Below, one piece after another: positions 4,299 to 30,779 of a stretch of 32,000 bases of DNA. The DNA lies in NCBI RefSeq assembly GCF_000284115.1, contig NC_017080.1, positions 30,001 to 62,000 on the forward strand, read 5' to 3'. The DNA is from Phycisphaera mikurensis NBRC 102666. GTDB taxonomy: Bacteria; Planctomycetota; Phycisphaerae; Phycisphaerales; Phycisphaeraceae. A model generated the notes under the pieces. The model saw only the letters and a list, made by a program, of their open reading frames with translations. It searched no databases and was not told the origin of the DNA. The position numbers and the translations under genes are program-made. Position 1 is the first letter of the stretch; each line of letters begins with the position of its first letter.

Positions 4299-7154
4299 TC
4301 AGCGGAGGGCGGCGGCGCGGATCGCGCGGAGGCGGGCGGCGGAGGCGGGACCGCCCAAGGCGGGGTCCTGGTCCTCGAGCTGCGCGACGGAGAGGCCGAC
4401 GCGGTCGACGCCTTCGCCCAGGGCGAGGTTGATCGAGAGCCGGCGGGCCCAGGCGTTCCAGAAGGCCGGCGGTCGCGTGCCGGCGAGGCCGCGGATCAAG
4501 CGGTCGTAGTACGGCGCGGCGCCGCGGGCGGCGGCGTCGGCCCCGGGCTCGTCGGTGAGCGTGAACGCGGTGCCGCCGGCGTCGCGGGTGCGGCGGACGC
4601 CCAGGGCGAAGCGGGCCTCGGCGGCGGCTTCGAGCACGCCGGCGTCGGCGGGGAAGGCGGCCTCCACGCCGGACTCCGCGAGGAAGGCGATGGCGCCGCC
4701 GGGGTCCCCCGAGCGGGTGAGGCCGTTGGCGTAAGCCAGCCGCCAGGGCAGCATGTCGGCTTCGGAGAGGCCGCGCCGGTTGGCGTCGGCCAGCAGCAGC
4801 GCCGCGAGCTGCACGGCGGAGGCGGAGACGCCGGCGGCCTCGTCCTCCAGCTCGGCGGCCCGGCTGGCGGAGGCGTCGCGGGCCCGCTCGGCCAGGGCGT
4901 CGGCCCGGGCCAGGAGGTCGGCGAGCACGCTCTTGACGACGCCGGCGGCGGCGGCGGGGTGGGCCTCCATCATCCCCGCGGCCTCGGCGGCGGCGGCGGC
5001 GGGCTCCCCGGCGGCGAGGAAGGCGGCGACGCGGAGCCCGGCGGCTTCGGCGAGCAGGCCGGGGACCGCGGCGGTGGCGGCGGGGTCGCCGCTGACCGAC
5101 GCGAGGCGGGCATCGAGGCCGTCGAGCCCGGCGGCGGCGGCGGAGGGGTTGCCGCGGGCGCTCTGGATGCGGGCGGCCGCGAGCGCGGCGCGGCCGACGC
5201 CGAGCACGGCGGCCGCGGGGTCGGCCCGGCCGCGGGCCCGGGCCTCGGCGGCGAGCCGCTCGGCGGTGGCCTCGGCGGCGTCGAGCAGCGTCCGCGCCGC
5301 TTCCCGCGAGGGCGCGGCGGCCGCGGCACGCTCCCGCGCGTCCAGGGACAGGCCGAGCGCGTCGAGCCGCTGCGGGTGGTCCGCGGGCACGAGCTCGTAC
5401 ACGGCCGCCGCTCCCGCATCGTCGCCGCGGAGGGTGTGGCCGGCGTAGGCCCAGTACAGCCGGTGGCGTTCGGCGGCGGGGGTCTCGGCGAAGCGGGAGA
5501 ACAGCAGCGACATCACCTCGGCGTAGCGGTCGGCGACCGGGCCATCGGGTCGGCTGGCCGAGGCCTGCGCCGAGGCGGCGAGGTCGGCGGCGCGGGCGAT
5601 CGCGGGCTCGGCCTCGGCGGACCGGGGGAAGTCGCGGGCGATCGCGAGCAGCGACGCGATCGACGCGTCGACGGCGGCGGGGTCGTCGGGCGAGGCCGCC
5701 GCGGTGGCGGCGGCGAGGTCGGCGGCGGCACCCAGGGCGGCGTCGCGCTCGACGCCTTCGGGCAGCGCGGCGGGGTCCCCCAGGCCGGACACCGCGGCGG
5801 ACGCGGCGGCGGCGGCCCGGGCGTGGTCGCCGGCGGCGAGGGCCTCGCGGGCGACGGCGGCGGCGACGCGGGGCGGCAGGCCGGCGGCTTCGACGCCGGC
5901 GCCAGCGGCGAGCGACGCCTGCCGCGAGCGGGCGAGCGCATCGAGCGCGGGCGGCAGGCCGTCGTAGGCGCCGGCCGCGGCGGCGGCGTCGCCCGCGGCG
6001 GCGGCGTGGCGGGCGGCGGCGTCGGCCACGAGCAGGGCCAGCATCGGGTCGCTGCTGCGGGTGGCGGCCGCGGCGGCGGCGGCCAGCGCCGCCTCCGCGG
6101 CCGCGCCGTCCTGGGTCGCGGCGAGCGCGAGCCTGGCGGTGACGGCGAGGCGGCCGGGCGGCAGCTCCGGCACGAGGTTGCGGAGCGTCGCGGCGGCGCC
6201 GGCAAGATCGCCCGAAGCGGCGTTGGCGCGGGCGAGCAGGAGCGAGGCGGCGGGGGCGAGCGGGCCGGGGTCGCCGTCGAGCAGGGCCCGGGCCGATCGC
6301 CGGGCGAGATCGAGCAGGCGCCGCCGCTCGGCGGCGGGATCGTCGAGGCGGCCGGCGAGCGGCACGGGCGGCGCGGCGTCGTGATACGGGTCGCCGGCGG
6401 GCAGCGTCGCCAGGCCGAGCGCGGCGGTGGCGACGCCAAGCGGCGCGCGCCGCTCGGCCACTCCCCGGAGCACGGCGTCGGCGAGCCCGGAGGCGCGGGC
6501 GTCGGCCTCGGCGGCGCGGTCGCGGCCGAGCGCGTTCCGCAGGCGGGCGGCGGCGGCGCCGGCCTCCTGCGCGGCGGCGAGCGCCTCGGCCAGGGCGGGG
6601 GCGACGGGGGCGGCTTCGCTCGGGGACGGCCGGCCGTACGCGACGGAGAGGTCGGCGTGGCGGAGCCGGCGTTCCAGCCGGCCGACGAGCAGCGCCTCGG
6701 CGAGGTCGGCGGCGAAGAGCGCCCGCTGGGGGTGGCCCGCCAGCGCCGGGTCGGTGGCGAGCTCGCGGAGCGCCGCGAGCCGGGCGTTCGATGCGGCCGC
6801 GGCCCGCGTGGCCGCGGCCCGCAGCGCGTCGGCGTCGCCCGCCGCGGCGGCGGCGCGGCCGGCGGCGTCGGCCGAGACCTCCGCCGCGTGGGCCCCGGCC
6901 GCCGCGAGCACCCGCGCGGTCGCGGGGTCGTCCAGCGGCGGGGCGTCGGCCGCCCAGCGCTCCAGGAGCGCCGGGAGCCCTCGCTGCCCGAGGTCCCGCA
7001 GCAGCCGGTGCTCGGTGAAGGCGTCGGTGGTGCCCGCGGCGGGCGCCGCCGACGCGCCCGGCGAGACGCCCGCTGCGATCAGGACGGTGGCGGCGTGGAG
7101 GAAGCGGTGGCGGAGCGCGTGGGGCATGGGCACGGGGTGTCGGCGTGGCGTCAC
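4299..7154 (-). CDS. Alanine-rich 951-aa exported or membrane-anchored protein, probably all-helical (TPR/solenoid- or TolA-like); last gene of the ExbBD-vWA operon
   Basis: Long ORF whose start overlaps the exbD stop (GTGA). N-terminus ...MPHALRHRFLHAATVLIAAGVSPGASAAPAAG is hydrophobic and contains His. Ala/Leu/Arg/Asp-rich throughout. The start is GTG at 7154 or ATG at 7127. Confidence 0.7.
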   Translation of the reverse strand: MTPRRHPVPMPHALRHRFLHAATVLIAAGVSPGASAAPAAGTTDAFTEHRLLRDLGQRGLPALLERWAADAPPLDDPATARVLAAAGAHAAEVSADAAGRAAAAAGDADALRAAATRAAAASNARLAALRELATDPALAGHPQRALFAADLAEALLVGRLERRLRHADLSVAYGRPSPSEAAPVAPALAEALAAAQEAGAAAARLRNALGRDRAAEADARASGLADAVLRGVAERRAPLGVATAALGLATLPAGDPYHDAAPPVPLAGRLDDPAAERRRLLDLARRSARALLDGDPGPLAPAASLLLARANAASGDLAGAAATLRNLVPELPPGRLAVTARLALAATQDGAAAEAALAAAAAAATRSSDPMLALLVADAAARHAAAAGDAAAAAGAYDGLPPALDALARSRQASLAAGAGVEAAGLPPRVAAAVAREALAAGDHARAAAAASAAVSGLGDPAALPEGVERDAALGAAADLAAATAAASPDDPAAVDASIASLLAIARDFPRSAEAEPAIARAADLAASAQASASRPDGPVADRYAEVMSLLFSRFAETPAAERHRLYWAYAGHTLRGDDAGAAAVYELVPADHPQRLDALGLSLDARERAAAAAPSREAARTLLDAAEATAERLAAEARARGRADPAAAVLGVGRAALAAARIQSARGNPSAAAAGLDGLDARLASVSGDPAATAAVPGLLAEAAGLRVAAFLAAGEPAAAAAEAAGMMEAHPAAAAGVVKSVLADLLARADALAERARDASASRAAELEDEAAGVSASAVQLAALLLADANRRGLSEADMLPWRLAYANGLTRSGDPGGAIAFLAESGVEAAFPADAGVLEAAAEARFALGVRRTRDAGGTAFTLTDEPGADAAARGAAPYYDRLIRGLAGTRPPAFWNAWARRLSINLALGEGVDRVGLSVAQLEDQDPALGGPASAARLRAIRAAALR

Positions 7155-16465: not shown

Positions 16466-17419
16466 ATGAACCTCTCCGGGGAATCGCGTCGGGCGCTGCT
16501 GCGCCTCCTGCTCGCCGCCGTGCTGCTCGCGGCCCCGGCCCGGGCGGGGGAAGCGGTCGCCATCGAGGTGGACGTGGCGCTGGTGCGGCAAGCCTTCGTG
16601 GAGGTCCATGCCGGGCACTCGGCGGACGAGGTGGTGGTGCAGGAGGGCCTCAACGCGGCCTTCCTCAACGCCTGCGCCCGCCTGCACCGGCGCAGCGCGG
16701 ACCGCTTGGGCGAGGCGAAGATCGTGGCGTTCACCACGGCGTGCAATCGGGCGCTGCTCAACCTGCGGAAGGCCGGCGGGCTCCGCGGCGAGGACGCCCG
16801 GACGACCCGCCGCCACGCCGACCGGGAGGGTGCCCCCCCGCCGGACGCGTACCGGCACGCGGCGGAGATCGCGGCGCGGCGGGTGACCGACGCCCACGCC
16901 GCGACGCTCGACGACGTGCTCTGCGACCCGACCCTGCGGGCGGCCTTCGCGGCGGAGGGGCACGCGCTGGCGGGGCCGGTGGAGGGCCTCCGCGACGAGG
17001 ACCTGCGGCGGGCGGCGCTCACGCTGCGGAAGAGCCGGCGGCTGCGGCCGGAGCTGGTCGTGCGGGTCGCGGATTGGGGCCGGACGATGGGCGACGCGCC
17101 CGCGGGCGAGCTGGCGGCGGCCTTCGCCGGAAGCGAGGAGCCGGTGCCCGCCGCGCCGGGCGTCTACCTCCTCGCCGACGGCGGCGGCTACCTGTACATC
17201 GGCGAGGCGTTGGACCTGGCGGCCCGGCTGCGTCAGCACCTCGACGAGAGCGACCGCACGGCGCTGCGTCACCACCTGCTGGAGAACGGGCTGGCCGGGG
17301 TGACCGTGGAGTGGCACGCCTTCGACCCGGCGAGCGACGCGCGGCTGGCCCGGTACCGGCGGGCCTACGAGAGCGACCTGATCGCGTCGCGCCGCCCGCG
17401 CTTCAACGTGCGGCCCTGA
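16466..17419 (+). CDS. GIY-YIG nuclease-domain protein with Tat/Sec-like signal peptide and duplicated N-terminal domain
   Basis: C-terminus PGVYLLADGGGYLYIGEALDLAARLRQH...RRAYESDLIASRRPRFN is GIY-YIG-like. The N-terminus is MNLSGESRRALLRLLLAAVLLAAPARAGEA. Two similar segments each end ...LNLRKAGGL and ...LTLRKSRRL. Confidence 0.75.
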   Translation: MNLSGESRRALLRLLLAAVLLAAPARAGEAVAIEVDVALVRQAFVEVHAGHSADEVVVQEGLNAAFLNACARLHRRSADRLGEAKIVAFTTACNRALLNLRKAGGLRGEDARTTRRHADREGAPPPDAYRHAAEIAARRVTDAHAATLDDVLCDPTLRAAFAAEGHALAGPVEGLRDEDLRRAALTLRKSRRLRPELVVRVADWGRTMGDAPAGELAAAFAGSEEPVPAAPGVYLLADGGGYLYIGEALDLAARLRQHLDESDRTALRHHLLENGLAGVTVEWHAFDPASDARLARYRRAYESDLIASRRPRFNVRP

Positions 17420-17460
17420 GGGCTCGACCTCCGACACATCCTCCCAAACCCGCCGATGCC

Positions 17461-18045
17461 CGGGTGCCACGCCGCTCGCGGGGTGGGAAGCGCGGGAGGT
17501 CGTCGCGACGCGGCCACCCCCCAAGGGGCGTGGCACCCGGGAACCCTCATCGAGCGGAGATCTCGGGTGCCACGCCGCTTGCGGGGTGGCGAGCGCGGGA
17601 GGTCGTCGCGACGCGGCCACCCCCCAAGGGGCGTGGCACCCGGGAACGCCCATCAAGCGGAGATCTCGGGTGCCACGCCGCTCGCGGGGTGGCGAGCGCG
17701 GGAGGTCGTTGCGACGCGGCCACCCCCCAAGGGGCGTGGCACCCGGGAACCCCAACCAAGCGGAGGTGTTGGGTGCCACGCCGCTTGCGGGGTGGCGAGC
17801 GCGGGAGGTCGTCGCGACGCGGCCACCCCCCAAGGGGCGTGGCACCCGGGAACGCCCATCAAGCGGAGATCTCGGGTGCCACGCCGCTCGCGGGGTGGCG
17901 AGCGCGGGAGGTCGTCGCGACGCGGCCACCCCCCAAGGGGCGTGGCACCCGGGAATCGCGAAAGAGCGGGAACCTCGGGTGCCGAGCATCCGGGTCTCCT
18001 TAAGAGGTGCGTCGAAGGCTGAGCCCTGGAGGGCGTGGCACCCCG
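17461..18045. repeat. Tandem array of 103-bp structured (nested-hairpin) repeats: 5 full units plus 1 divergent terminal unit
   Basis: Unit starts are 17461, 17564, 17667, 17770, 17873 and 17976. Each unit has outer arms CGGGTGCCACGCC/GGCGTGGCACCCG and inner arms GGGGTGGC/GCCACCCC. The apical part is CGCG-GGAGGTCGT-CGCG, followed by a 24-nt semi-conserved linker. Confidence 0.95.
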
Positions 18046-18088
18046 ACCCGTATCTGCTTGATCGTCCGGGTGTTCTCGGCAACGCGGA

Positions 18089-19474
18089 TCAGGCGAGCAC
18101 GACCCTCGCCCGGCACGGCCGCACGGCGGCCATCGCGTTCCGGGTGTCGACCACGAGCGACGCGTGCTCGCCGACGAGCGCGAGGTCGAGCGCCGCGTGG
18201 TCGGTGGCGACGACCACGGCGTCCGCGGCGGCGAGCGTCGCGGCGGTGAGCGGGACGCTCGCGAGGCCGGCGTGGCGCGGCGAGCGGGGCACGTGCGGAT
18301 CGTGGCAGCTCACCGCCGCGCCGGCTTCTTGGAGGCGGTCGATCAGGTCCAGCGCCGGGCTTTCACGCGTGTCGGCGACGTCGGCCTTGTACGCGAGCCC
18401 CAGCACGAGCACGCGGGCGCCGCGGACCGGGCGGCCGCCGCCGGCGAGCGCGGCCGCGGTCCGCTCGGCGACCCGCGCAGGCGTGCGGCGGTTGACCTCG
18501 CCGGCGAGCTCGATGAAGCGCGGATCCAGCCCCGCCTCCCGCGCCCGCCACGCGAGGTAGTGCGGGTCGATCGGGATGCAGTGGCCGCCGATGCCCGGAC
18601 CGGGGTCGAAGCGCATGAAGCCGAAGGGCTTGGTCGCCGCGGCGTCGAGCACCTCGAAGGGGTCGATGCCCAGCTCCAGCCAGAGCTCCTTCTGCTCATT
18701 CACGAGGCCGATGTTCACCGCCCGGAACACGTTCTCGTGCAGCTTGGCCGCCTCGGCCACCTCCGCGGAGGAGACCTCGACCACCCGCGAGATCGCCGCG
18801 CGGTACAGCGTGGCGGCGAGGCGGCCCGAGGCGGCGTCGAGCCCGCCGACGAGGCGCGGGATCGTTGCGGTCGTGTGATCGCGGCGGCCGGGGTCCTCCC
18901 GCTCGGGCGCGTAGGCGACGAAGACGGACCGGCCGAGCACCAGGCCCGCCGCCTCCAGCGGCGGCAGCACCACCTCGCGGGTGGTGCCGGGGTAGGTGGT
19001 GCTCTCCAGCACGACCAGCTGGCCGGGCCGAGCGGCGGCGGCGACCGCCGCGGCGGTGTCGCGGACGAAGGAGAGGTCCGGCGAGAGGTCCGGCTTCAGC
19101 GGCGTCGGCACGCACAGCAGCACGGCGTCGGCGTCGGCCAGCCGGGCGGCGTCGCCGGTGGCCTCGAAGCGCCCGGAGCCGACGAGGCGCTCGACGAAGC
19201 CCTCGCCCAGGTGCGGGACCCAGTCCCGCGCCGGCCGGGCCGAAGCCGCGGCGACCTTGGCGGGATCGGCGTCGAAGCCGAGCACGCGGAAGCCGGCGTC
19301 GAGCATCGCTCGGCACAGCGGCAGCCCCACGTAGCCGAGCCCCACCACCGCCACCGCCGCGGTCCGGTCGGCGAACCGCCGCGCCAGCTCCGCCCCGGCG
19401 GCCGTCGCATCGGGCGGAGCCGGGGGCTCCGCCGGGGCCGGGGGCGTTCGGGATGCCGGTTCCGGATCGGTCAC
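18089..19474 (-). CDS. Nucleotide-sugar dehydrogenase (UDP-GlcNAc/UDP-ManNAc 6-dehydrogenase family)
   Basis: Rossmann motif VAVVGLGYVGLPL. The catalytic region GGHCIPIDPHYL is typical of the WbpA/WecC/TviB branch. The GTG start is uncertain. Confidence 0.88.
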   Translation of the reverse strand: MTDPEPASRTPPAPAEPPAPPDATAAGAELARRFADRTAAVAVVGLGYVGLPLCRAMLDAGFRVLGFDADPAKVAAASARPARDWVPHLGEGFVERLVGSGRFEATGDAARLADADAVLLCVPTPLKPDLSPDLSFVRDTAAAVAAAARPGQLVVLESTTYPGTTREVVLPPLEAAGLVLGRSVFVAYAPEREDPGRRDHTTATIPRLVGGLDAASGRLAATLYRAAISRVVEVSSAEVAEAAKLHENVFRAVNIGLVNEQKELWLELGIDPFEVLDAAATKPFGFMRFDPGPGIGGHCIPIDPHYLAWRAREAGLDPRFIELAGEVNRRTPARVAERTAAALAGGGRPVRGARVLVLGLAYKADVADTRESPALDLIDRLQEAGAAVSCHDPHVPRSPRHAGLASVPLTAATLAAADAVVVATDHAALDLALVGEHASLVVDTRNAMAAVRPCRARVVLA

Positions 19475-20016: not shown

Positions 20017-20090
<74 letters not shown>

Positions 20091-29529: not shown

Positions 29530-29700
29530 CCGCCGCCCATCCAGCCCCCTCGCGCACAAGGCAGACAAAGCGGCGTCGCCGCTCAGCTCTCGCCGCCACC
29601 CTGGCCGCGCGAGCTGCGTGGCGACGCCACGCTGTCCGAGCCGCCAATCCAGCTCCCTCGCGCACAAGCCAAACAGAGCGGCGTCGCCGCTCAGCTCTCG
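29530..29700. repeat. REPIN-like repeat array, 3' flank of the RAYT gene (about 1.5 units of a 107-108-bp repeat)
   Basis: Palindrome P1 GCGTGGCGACGCCACGC lies at 29616-29632. Palindrome P2 AGCGGCGTCGCCGCT lies at 29569-29583 and 29677-29691. The array ends 32 nt from the RAYT stop. Confidence 0.9.
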
Positions 29701-29722
29701 CAGCCAATCCCGCTCGATGCCC

Positions 29723-30325: not shown

Positions 30326-30417
30326 AGCGACAAACCTACCAAAGACCGGTCATTCGCGAGCGGCCGCGGTTCCCCTCTCATACACCGCCCTCACACGCAA
30401 GCCGAAGAAACCGCCGC

Positions 30418-30738
30418 AGCCACCCCGGCCGCGGTAGCTGCGTGGCGACGCCACGCTGTCCGACTCCCCATCCAGCTCCCTCGCGCACAAGGCAGACAGA
30501 GCGGCGTCGCCGCTCCGCTCTCGAAGCCACCCTGGCCGCGCTAGCTGCGTGGCGACGCCACGCTGTCCGAGCCGCCGATCCAGCTCCCTCGCGCACAAGC
30601 AGACAGAGCGGCGTCGCCGCTCAGCTCTCGGAGCCAGCCTGGCCGCGGTAGCTGCGTGGCGACGCCACGCTGTCCGACTCCCCATCCAGCCCCCTCGCGC
30701 ACAAGGCAGACAGAGCGGCGTCGCCGCTCAGCTCTCGG
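30418..30738. repeat. REPIN-like repeat array, 5' flank of the RAYT gene (3 units, period 107 bp)
   Basis: P1 lies at 30440-30456, 30547-30563 and 30654-30670. P2 lies at 30500-30514, 30607-30621 and 30714-30728. P1 and P2 cores (GGCGACGCC / GGCGTCGCC) are reverse complements, so each unit is an inverted REP doublet. Confidence 0.92.
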
Positions 30739-30779
30739 TCGTCAGAGTTCCGGCCCCAACGATCTCGAAGCGCTCGCCC

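Follow-up and report, generated by a model that had tools for sequence, protein, structure and literature searches.

To our knowledge, REP, BIME and REPIN elements have been studied almost entirely in Proteobacteria. In Escherichia coli, BIME-2 elements are REP/iREP pairs that occur in tandem copies, homogeneous within each locus and variable in number among strains, and strand transfer by TnpA-REP has been proposed to assemble these tandem copies (Ton-Hoang et al. 2012, PMC3333891). BIMEs of this species bind IHF, gyrase and Pol I (PMC3333891). The E. coli cluster REP325 illustrates the consequences that such arrays may have for their surroundings: it is a partly Rho-dependent terminator and a stabilizer of the upstream mRNA, where REPs separate convergent genes, both genes tend to be expressed more highly, and the cluster brings about no measurable chromosome compaction (Harris et al. 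2026, bioRxiv 10.64898/2026.03.23.713779). Planctomycetes enter the picture through the class 3 HuH-Y1 (TnpA-Y1) genes, which occur mainly in this group and in Acidobacteria and are flanked by atypical hairpins for which high copy numbers are possible (Quentin et al. 2018, PMC6006769).

Here we consider a tandem array of palindromes in the planctomycete Phycisphaera mikurensis NBRC 102666. It lies in a 32,000-nucleotide stretch of contig NC_017080.1 (positions 30,001 to 62,000 of the forward strand), which we call the window and to which all coordinates below refer. We judge it likely, on balance, that this array is a locally amplified, head-to-tail cluster of a REPIN/BIME-like palindromic intergenic repeat. 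As such, it is best compared with the tandem REP/BIME clusters of E. coli rather than read as a new RNA gene.

The array and its surroundings

The strongest tandem array of the window, as called by TRF, spans 17461-17955 with a period of 103, 4.8 copies, 94% matches and a score of 892, and it fills the gap (17420-18088) that separates the stop codons of two convergent ORFs (Table 1). An initial annotation, prepared from the letters and a list of open reading frames, had described five full 103-bp units and a divergent sixth in a convergent gap of about 670 bp. Both TRF and in-register alignment confirm that description, and the gap measures 669 bp. Units 1 to 5 follow one another in register with pairwise identities of 91-102/103; unit 6 reaches 29-35/103 in register to the other units, and its predicted fold has an energy of -35 kcal/mol.

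Each 103-bp unit is composed of a 79-nt nested palindrome and a 24-nt tail. The palindrome is laid out as a 13-bp outer stem, a 6x6 internal region, an 8-bp inner stem and an apical CGCG-type stem, with GGGAGG in the apical region and GGAG in the tail. Pairing within the 6x6 region extends to four of six positions in B units and three of six in A units. This nested anatomy and the A-B-A-B-A alternation of units had both been read from the letters, and were right in all details checked; the alternation is real, but is carried by just two columns, 17 (C/T) and 85 (C/G). The 24-nt linkers between palindromes are repeated too, and the whole 103 bp constitutes the repeat. A CRISPR array, with identical repeats and unique spacers, is ruled out by this repetition of the linkers, the very argument by which the annotation had dismissed it. 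Most private changes are found in the edge units 1 and 5, which is the pattern expected if the array was homogenized from its center.

Table 1. Coordinates of the palindromic units and of the two genes that enclose them, as positions in the window
Feature	Coordinates	Strand	Description
GIY-YIG-domain protein	16466..17419	+	BAM02202, exact match; stop 41 bp before the array; context, outside the element
Unit 1	17461..17563		A-type edge variant: inner stem GGGAAGC, divergent tail; palindrome 17461-17539 plus 24-nt tail; 92-97/103 to other units
Unit 2	17564..17666		B-type, GCTTGC; palindrome 17564-17642 plus tail; 102/103 to unit 4
Unit 3	17667..17769		A-type, GCTCGC; private variants GTTGCGAC, tail CCCCAACCAAGCGGAGGTGT; missing from the draft assembly
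Unit 4	17770..17872		B-type; nearly identical to unit 2; missing from the draft assembly
Unit 5	17873..17975		A-type; diverged terminal tail GGGAATCGCGAAAGAGCGGGAACCT
Unit 6	17976..18045		Degenerate palindrome; family arms alone retained (CGGGTGCC ... GGCGTGGCACCCC), interior unrelated
Nucleotide-sugar dehydrogenase (UDP-glucose/GDP-mannose dehydrogenase family)	18089..19474	-	BAM02204, exact match; stop 43 bp after unit 6; context

A second, draft assembly of the strain (GCA_014207395.1) presents the array as units 1, 2, 5 and 6. It is without exactly units 3 and 4—206 bp, or one A-B pair—while the flanks are 100% identical between the two assemblies, which contain five and three full units, respectively. 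Two short-read contigs end at the edge of the array, and the difference in unit number may reflect either real copy-number instability or collapse during short-read assembly. The proposal of a recent 206-bp higher-order duplication is sustained by the loss of precisely this pair from the draft and by the agreement of units 2 and 4 at 102 of 103 positions.

The gene upstream of the array, BAM02202, encodes a conserved Planctomycetota protein with 207 homologs at about 45-50% identity across orders. Its GIY-YIG domain scores 22.5 bits against a cut-off of 22.6, and most of the homologs, among the matches listed, have the domain. A functional link between this gene and the array was considered and rejected: the protein is conserved, and downstream of its three closest homologs (85, 77 and 71% identity) there is neither an array nor a shared neighbor, the next gene following within 19-83 bp. 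Downstream of the dehydrogenase gene, the closest homologs (79 and 75% identity) have no array either. About 50 kb of the P. mikurensis chromosome contained no further copy, and a profile search detected none in about 60 kb from close relatives. Because the relatives are without it at both flanking genes and no copy occurs in those 60 kb, the array is specific to the P. mikurensis lineage; it sits next to a nuclease gene incidentally. Near-matches to the arms in a contig of the closest relative come from a tandem gene duplication of 1,323 bp that is unrelated to the array, and plasmid, phage and viral collections gave no match to the array. Within the window, the 107-bp family at 29.5-30.7 kb is distinct in sequence, as had been stated from the outset: a unit-profile search there matches the 103-bp array alone.

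Palindromes with the same arms in other Planctomycetota

In a collection with a single genome for each species, the 12-nt arm pair GGGTGCCACGCC ... GGCGTGGCACCC, separated by any interior of 35-65 nt, was found in 53 stretches. Apart from one 7.8-kb contig that carries the label Rhodothermaeota, all come from Planctomycetota MAGs—of Planctomycetaceae, Pirellulales, Pirellulaceae and Brocadiia. Metagenomes, scanned for the subtype in which G follows the arm, added three single copies, bringing the total to 56 stretches, and a viral scan for the arm pair found none. The copies almost always stand alone and are dispersed; a single 8.3-Mb contig contains at least 30 of them with exact arms. The copy-rich MAGs are MFD04540.bin.1.38 and MFD00964.bin.3.253. 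P. mikurensis itself was not returned by the genome-collection scan, which is unusable for counting copies there. The arms were the anchors of the search, and arm identity alone proves nothing; matches restricted to one phylum across several unrelated interior types are not what chance would give.

The design of the arm is shared, with GGGTGC leading into a small hairpin, CACGCC..loop..GGCGTG, in which the stem bases vary by lineage and pairing is kept. In most lineages the arm forms this hairpin of its own; in P. mikurensis it does so weakly, with 7 bp and one mismatch. By the arm lies a six-base element, GCTYKS in the relatives and GCTYGC in P. mikurensis, whose polymorphic position varies independently in the two arms (CG 4, CA 4, TA 7 and TG 11 observed, against 4.6, 3.4, 7.6 and 10.4 expected). 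By this measure the hexamer acts like an unpaired loop instead of a stem, in keeping with the 6x6 region of the P. mikurensis unit, which is likewise non-complementary. The center of the related palindromes is variable, and their interiors are lineage-specific. Directly after the palindrome, on one side, AGA occurs in 17 of 44 oriented copies against an expected 1 in 64. In P. mikurensis this tag appears as GGCACCCG-AGA on the minus strand at three junctions, after units 1, 2 and 4, which are those where the standard tail meets the next unit.

Beyond the 12-nt arms, the likeness of the P. mikurensis unit to the dispersed family is architectural and short, and a profile built from the unit scores the MAG copies weakly (best 12.9 bits, E 0.05). 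We infer that the unit is homologous with the dispersed family and, because the similarity of interior sequence is weak, grade that relationship as likely, not proven. What is unusual here is a 12-nt arm that is identical across several classes of the phylum while the interiors drift. The arm sequence led to only an unrelated eIF4F paper in the searchable literature.

The dispersed copies behave like REP/BIME/REPIN-type elements. About 80% of them are located between ORFs, and ORF calls over-extended through the palindrome can account for the others. Neighboring genes are found in all arrangements (++ 12, -- 10, +- 9, -+ 7), and the orientation of the element relative to gene direction follows no rule (6 versus 4). 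No protein family recurs beside the copies, and neither a transposase nor a GIY-YIG relative lies nearby; tblastn of the GIY-YIG protein against the 53 MAG loci likewise returned nothing. One protein family that had seemed to recur was discarded, being the palindrome itself translated by over-extended ORFs.

Two related MAGs, at about 90-93% DNA identity, permit a direct comparison of sites. Copies at some orthologous sites are shared between them, and two loci are filled in one and empty in the other. The segment present in just one MAG at one of these loci consists of the palindrome and some 55 nt that adjoin it on the AGA side alone, and the two filled/empty sites show no clean target-site duplication. 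Where orthologous copies are shared, the palindrome is identical at 254 of 261 positions, with all differences in loops, and the flanks at 1,055 of 1,213 (adjacent 300 bp, two pairs with alignable flanks). A mosaic of other short repeats, among them a mini-palindrome with a GTAG foot, flanks the copies. In the MAG that is richest in copies there is also a repeat of 1.5 kb (99.6% identity) that may be an IS.

Several approaches were directed at an enzyme that might accompany the palindromes. No RAYT/Y1 or any other transposase was found next to any copy, no class 3 HuH-Y1 gene was seen near any copy, and a regular expression for the HuH...Y motif had no match over the ORFs in about 600 kb of sequence. 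The ORFs between paired copies at two loci (L053 and L017) are not RAYT-like by eye. Around the array itself, no RAYT (PF01797)-type or transposase Pfam match is on record within about 25 kb.

Predicted folding and rival explanations

Unit 2 is predicted to fold very stably in each form considered: at -71.5 kcal/mol as plus-strand RNA (z -5.7), -66.8 kcal/mol as minus-strand RNA (z -5.8) and -44.2 kcal/mol as single-stranded DNA (z -6.5), with no shuffle as low in any of these cases. Because the arms of one unit can pair with those of another, the fold of the whole array is degenerate (MFE frequency 0.0002) and is uninformative about a defined higher-order RNA. The long ORFs that cross the array are artifacts of 75% GC and have no consistent reading frame, every unit being read in another frame because 103 is not a multiple of 3; a protein database search with the six-frame translation of the array gave no match and is uninformative. 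A tRNA-like origin was also rejected, the only ARAGORN prediction being a tRNA-Ile at 20017-20090.

Among the options raised by the annotation was a multi-hairpin regulatory RNA, either a CsrB/RsmZ-like sponge presenting GGA/GGAGG from the plus strand or a set of anti-SD CCUCC loops on the minus strand. The apical GGGAGG and the GGAG in the tail of each unit lend this idea some appeal, as does a repeated-hairpin layout superficially like that of sponge RNAs. The remaining evidence points the other way, and we consider such an RNA extremely improbable. An Rfam scan, which the annotation had proposed as a check, was run and gave no family at gathering thresholds and, even at E ≤ 10, just sub-threshold, spurious miRNA hairpin models. 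Between 17000 and 18500 neither strand contains a sigma-70-like promoter consensus or an intrinsic terminator (GC-rich hairpin plus T-tract, 0 sites), and the two strands fold equally well. The stems are 30-bp near-perfect palindromes, as against the short GGA-presenting hairpins of sponge RNAs, and three GGA per 103 nt is close to chance at this composition (estimate about 1.8). Nor is the GGAGG apical loop kept in the related elements, whose apical sequence varies and which occur in either orientation, and close relatives are without the array. A hairpin that lacks a U-tail might nevertheless hinder transcription or exonucleases.

The alternatives that concern the origin of the array turn largely on what is made of the related palindromes. 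If their arm identity with the P. mikurensis unit were a coincidence, the array could have arisen entirely on the spot, by tandem duplication of a solitary hairpin such as one that once terminated a flanking gene. Long GC-rich hairpins are numerous and chance matches to a 12-mer foot are conceivable; outside the anchors the likeness to MAG copies is weak, and a second locus was found neither in the 50 kb or so of chromosome searched nor in close relatives. We nonetheless find this explanation unlikely, given that all genome matches but one contig (Rhodothermaeota) fall in the query's own phylum and in several sequence types, and that the P. mikurensis unit and the MAG copies agree in where the hexamer loop lies, in how the arm hairpin is built and in the AGA tag. 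Unit 6 also combines the family arms with another interior, as is usual among independent members of the family. A second class of explanation accepts the arms as meaningful and has the host maintain them: the array would be a protein-binding or DNA-structuring array with 103-bp phasing, its arms a site for a conserved planctomycete protein, whether nucleoid-associated, gyrase or centromere-like. Conservation of the arms across classes while interiors drift, the better conservation of stems than flanks in orthologous copies, a unit length of about ten helical turns and the precedent of the proteins bound by E. coli BIMEs (PMC3333891) are all compatible with it. Conserved arms are predicted equally by a transposase recognition site, however, and the closest relatives are without the array at both flanks, the dispersed copies have no gene association and no partition or DNA-binding gene lies nearby. 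With REP325 showing no measurable compaction (bioRxiv 10.64898/2026.03.23.713779), a host-maintained array appears distinctly unlikely.

A non-autonomous derivative of a DDE-type transposon (MITE) is a further candidate, whose arms would be terminal inverted repeats for an IS transposase and whose array would have arisen by repeated insertion or recombination. Terminal inverted arms, dispersal and presence/absence polymorphism are what such an element would display, and the 1.5-kb repeat of the richest MAG might be taken for its IS. The arms are indeed inverted repeats, but the other marks of a MITE did not emerge: the two filled/empty sites are without target-site duplication, and no related autonomous IS with these ends occurs in any of the 53 8-kb loci. 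The palindrome is also continuous from the very end and carries a one-sided tail, unlike TIR-bounded MITEs. We regard a MITE as very unlikely. A REP/BIME-like cluster, which the annotation had listed among its options, is favored instead by related copies that are intergenic, orientation-free and presence/absence-polymorphic, and by the precedent of BIME-2.

Proposed origin and comparison with known systems

In the REPIN/BIME-like reading that we prefer, each 103-bp unit would be one whole element, in which a 79-nt hairpin is closed by the two inverted arms and followed on one side by the 24-nt tail. A whole element is the best explanation of the unit, as opposed to a hairpin with a random spacer. 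The element would be a member of the family of palindromes with the arms described above, which in other Planctomycetota are single, dispersed and extragenic. One such element would have reached the convergent gap in the P. mikurensis lineage and been amplified in place, the latest step being that of a 206-bp A-B dimer. Amplification may have proceeded by unequal recombination or slippage between units or, alternatively, by strand transfer through the family's putative mobilizing enzyme. The likeliest type of enzyme would be one that acts on single-stranded DNA hairpins, for instance a HuH-Y1/RAYT-type protein.

Any effect on the host would probably be a by-product of very stable hairpins. Such an effect would most likely be that of a two-way barrier to read-through and 3' exonucleases, by which the array might serve as a 3'-end stabilizer for the transcripts of both convergent genes; we suggest this by analogy, because REP325 in E. 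coli is a partial Rho-dependent terminator and mRNA stabilizer. If the array is such a two-way transcript barrier, it would amount to a compact insulator of natural origin, in an organism of very high GC content in which terminators have no U-tracts.

A bolder proposal, which we regard as rather doubtful, is that the GGGTGCCACGCC-armed palindromes are undescribed phylum-wide replicators of Planctomycetota, with a non-GTAG foot and a one-sided AGA tail, mobilized by an enzyme such as class 3 HuH-Y1, and that the array is a multimer made by strand transfer, not by recombination. Were this true, an array made by the enzyme's strand transfer would keep a record of the amplification step, and the orphan class 3 HuH-Y1 proteins may gain a substrate. 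More broadly, a family with identical 12-nt arms across planctomycete classes would help to find the protein that recognizes such hairpins. On the practical side, assembly of the P. mikurensis genome is likely to break or collapse at the array, and spurious ORFs are likely to be called there; the array is also a candidate variable-number locus for strain typing.

How closely does the array resemble the systems already described? Like REP, BIME and REPIN elements, it is extragenic—situated in a convergent gap, with relatives that lie mostly between ORFs—and consists of an inverted palindromic doublet able to form a long hairpin. Neither GTAG nor CGTC, the foot tags that mark the described REP super-families, is present; GGGTGC forms the foot, and AGA is the sole recurrent flank tag. 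With regard to high copy number, a hallmark of REPs, the one locus in about 50 kb of P. mikurensis stands beside the 30 or more copies of the richest 8.3-Mb contig.

The nearest parallel is with the BIME-2 or tandem REP clusters of E. coli, such as REP325 (Ton-Hoang et al. 2012, PMC3333891; Harris et al. 2026). Inverted palindromic arm pairs joined by short linkers run head-to-tail in intergenic sequence in both, often at gene 3' ends in the E. coli case, and the copies at a locus are near-identical and vary in number between isolates. In P. mikurensis the corresponding figures are the 91-102/103 identity among units and the count of five versus three, to which assembly collapse may contribute. 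An effect on read-through and 3'-end stability would be expected by analogy. The differences from BIME-2 are that the P. mikurensis array has neither a GTAG foot nor an identified cognate RAYT, that one locus was found in about 50 kb, and that its arms form one 79-nt nested hairpin with a 25-nt structured center, in contrast to two REPs of 30-40 nt.

The REPINs of Pseudomonas and enterobacteria (Bertels & Rainey 2011, PMC3116915) provide a template for the dispersed relatives. These, too, are inverted-repeat doublets that form a long hairpin, dispersed, intergenic and orientation-independent, and they persist at orthologous sites with conserved stems. A single-copy RAYT gene, itself flanked by REPs, goes with REPIN populations (PMC3116915) and was not found among the sequence examined here, and REPIN sequences are usually lineage-specific, whereas the present arms are identical across several planctomycete classes. 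The hairpins of class 3 HuH-Y1 genes (PMC6006769) belong to the same phylum and are likewise high-copy, atypical structures that are neither classical REPs nor IS ends. Compared by description only, they have a 5' CnGA foot, as against GGGTGC with AGA on the other side; the supplements of that study contain no planctomycete hairpin sequences to compare. Closer at hand, the 107-bp family of the same window (29532-29706 and 30415-30743) is also made of intergenic tandem units of about 105 bp with inverted short palindromes, but is unrelated in sequence, folds much more weakly (z -1.5) and occupies two loci in the window. Set against these systems, the palindromes are best classed as a planctomycete REPIN/BIME-like family, present in P. 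mikurensis in tandem form and new within a known class of element.

Annotation and repeats in the window

The gap that holds the 103-bp hairpin array of Phycisphaera mikurensis (window 17420-18088) is bounded by a GIY-YIG gene on the plus strand (BAM02202) and a nucleotide-sugar dehydrogenase gene on the minus strand (BAM02204). Judging purely from the numbering of these flanking accessions, which leaves one number between them, BAM02203 is probably an ORF annotated within the repeats; such an ORF would be spurious. The newer annotation of a second assembly of the same strain (GCA_014207395.1) calls no gene in the gap. A second tandem family occupies two loci of the window, with 107-bp units made up of the inverted short palindromes GCGTGGCGACGCCACGC and GAGCGGCGTCGCCGCTC. 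The family is unrelated to the array and folds only weakly (z -1.5); its units are close in length to those of the array.

Elsewhere in the window, three small genes, one of the HicA toxin family, lie between genes for dehydrogenase E1 alpha-like (PF00676) and beta-like (PF02779/PF02780) subunits, and GC content in the first 3 kb is lower, at 65-68% vs about 75%. An ORF of 942 residues has no Pfam family on record; its DNA has 83-84% GC with long GCG/GGC triplet-like tracts, an extreme composition that is unusual even for this genome.

Positions of the features described (L-numbers are sequence loci)
Feature	Location	Strand or extent
Three small genes	window about 1500-2120; L062 11221-11811	minus (window)
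942-residue ORF	window 4299-7127	minus
Triplet-like tracts (TRF)	window 5794-6026	
107-bp family, locus 1	window 29532-29706	about 1.6 units
107-bp family, locus 2	window 30415-30743	about 3 units
Doubled-foot palindrome	L060 1689-1801	
Palindrome-containing segment	L024 5972-6170	
Uninterrupted gene start	L034 1167-1184	
Tandem gene duplication	L056 9700-12957	1,323 bp
1.5-kb repeat	L009 3887-5364; L038 4967-6443	two copies

Individual palindrome copies

Among the dispersed palindromes that share arms with the array units, one from a metagenome carries its foot twice, CCGCGTGGCACCGTCCC-GGGTGCCACGCC ... GGCGTGGCACCC-GGGACGGTGCCACGCGG, similar to the junction of neighbouring units in the P. mikurensis array; its arm motif occurs four times, also pairing across a 6-nt loop. 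In one MAG, a palindrome-containing segment sits at the extreme 5' end of a conserved gene, replacing the codons for its N-terminal hydrophobic segment. The start of the same gene is uninterrupted in a related MAG, and insertion may therefore have shifted the start codon. A duplication unrelated to the array lies on the contig of the closest relative, where a gene of unknown function is tandemly duplicated and a 46-nt palindrome (CCGCGGACCGTCGAGGTTTTGG..CAAAACCGCCACGGTCCGCGG) precedes each copy.

Repeats beside the palindromes

Palindrome-bearing intergenic regions in Planctomycetaceae MAGs are mosaics of several repeat types. A 1.5-kb segment present twice in one MAG contig at 99.6% identity, which may be an insertion sequence, does not adjoin the palindromes. 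Other short repeats recur beside the palindromes (flanks in L015, L018, L021, L025, L026, L032, L038 and L049). One such flank repeat is GGGTTAACGGCGTAGAGTGCCAC, found for example in L009 and L012; another, TTTGAAGTAGACGGTCTACTA, includes a GTAG-footed mini-palindrome that resembles classical REPs.
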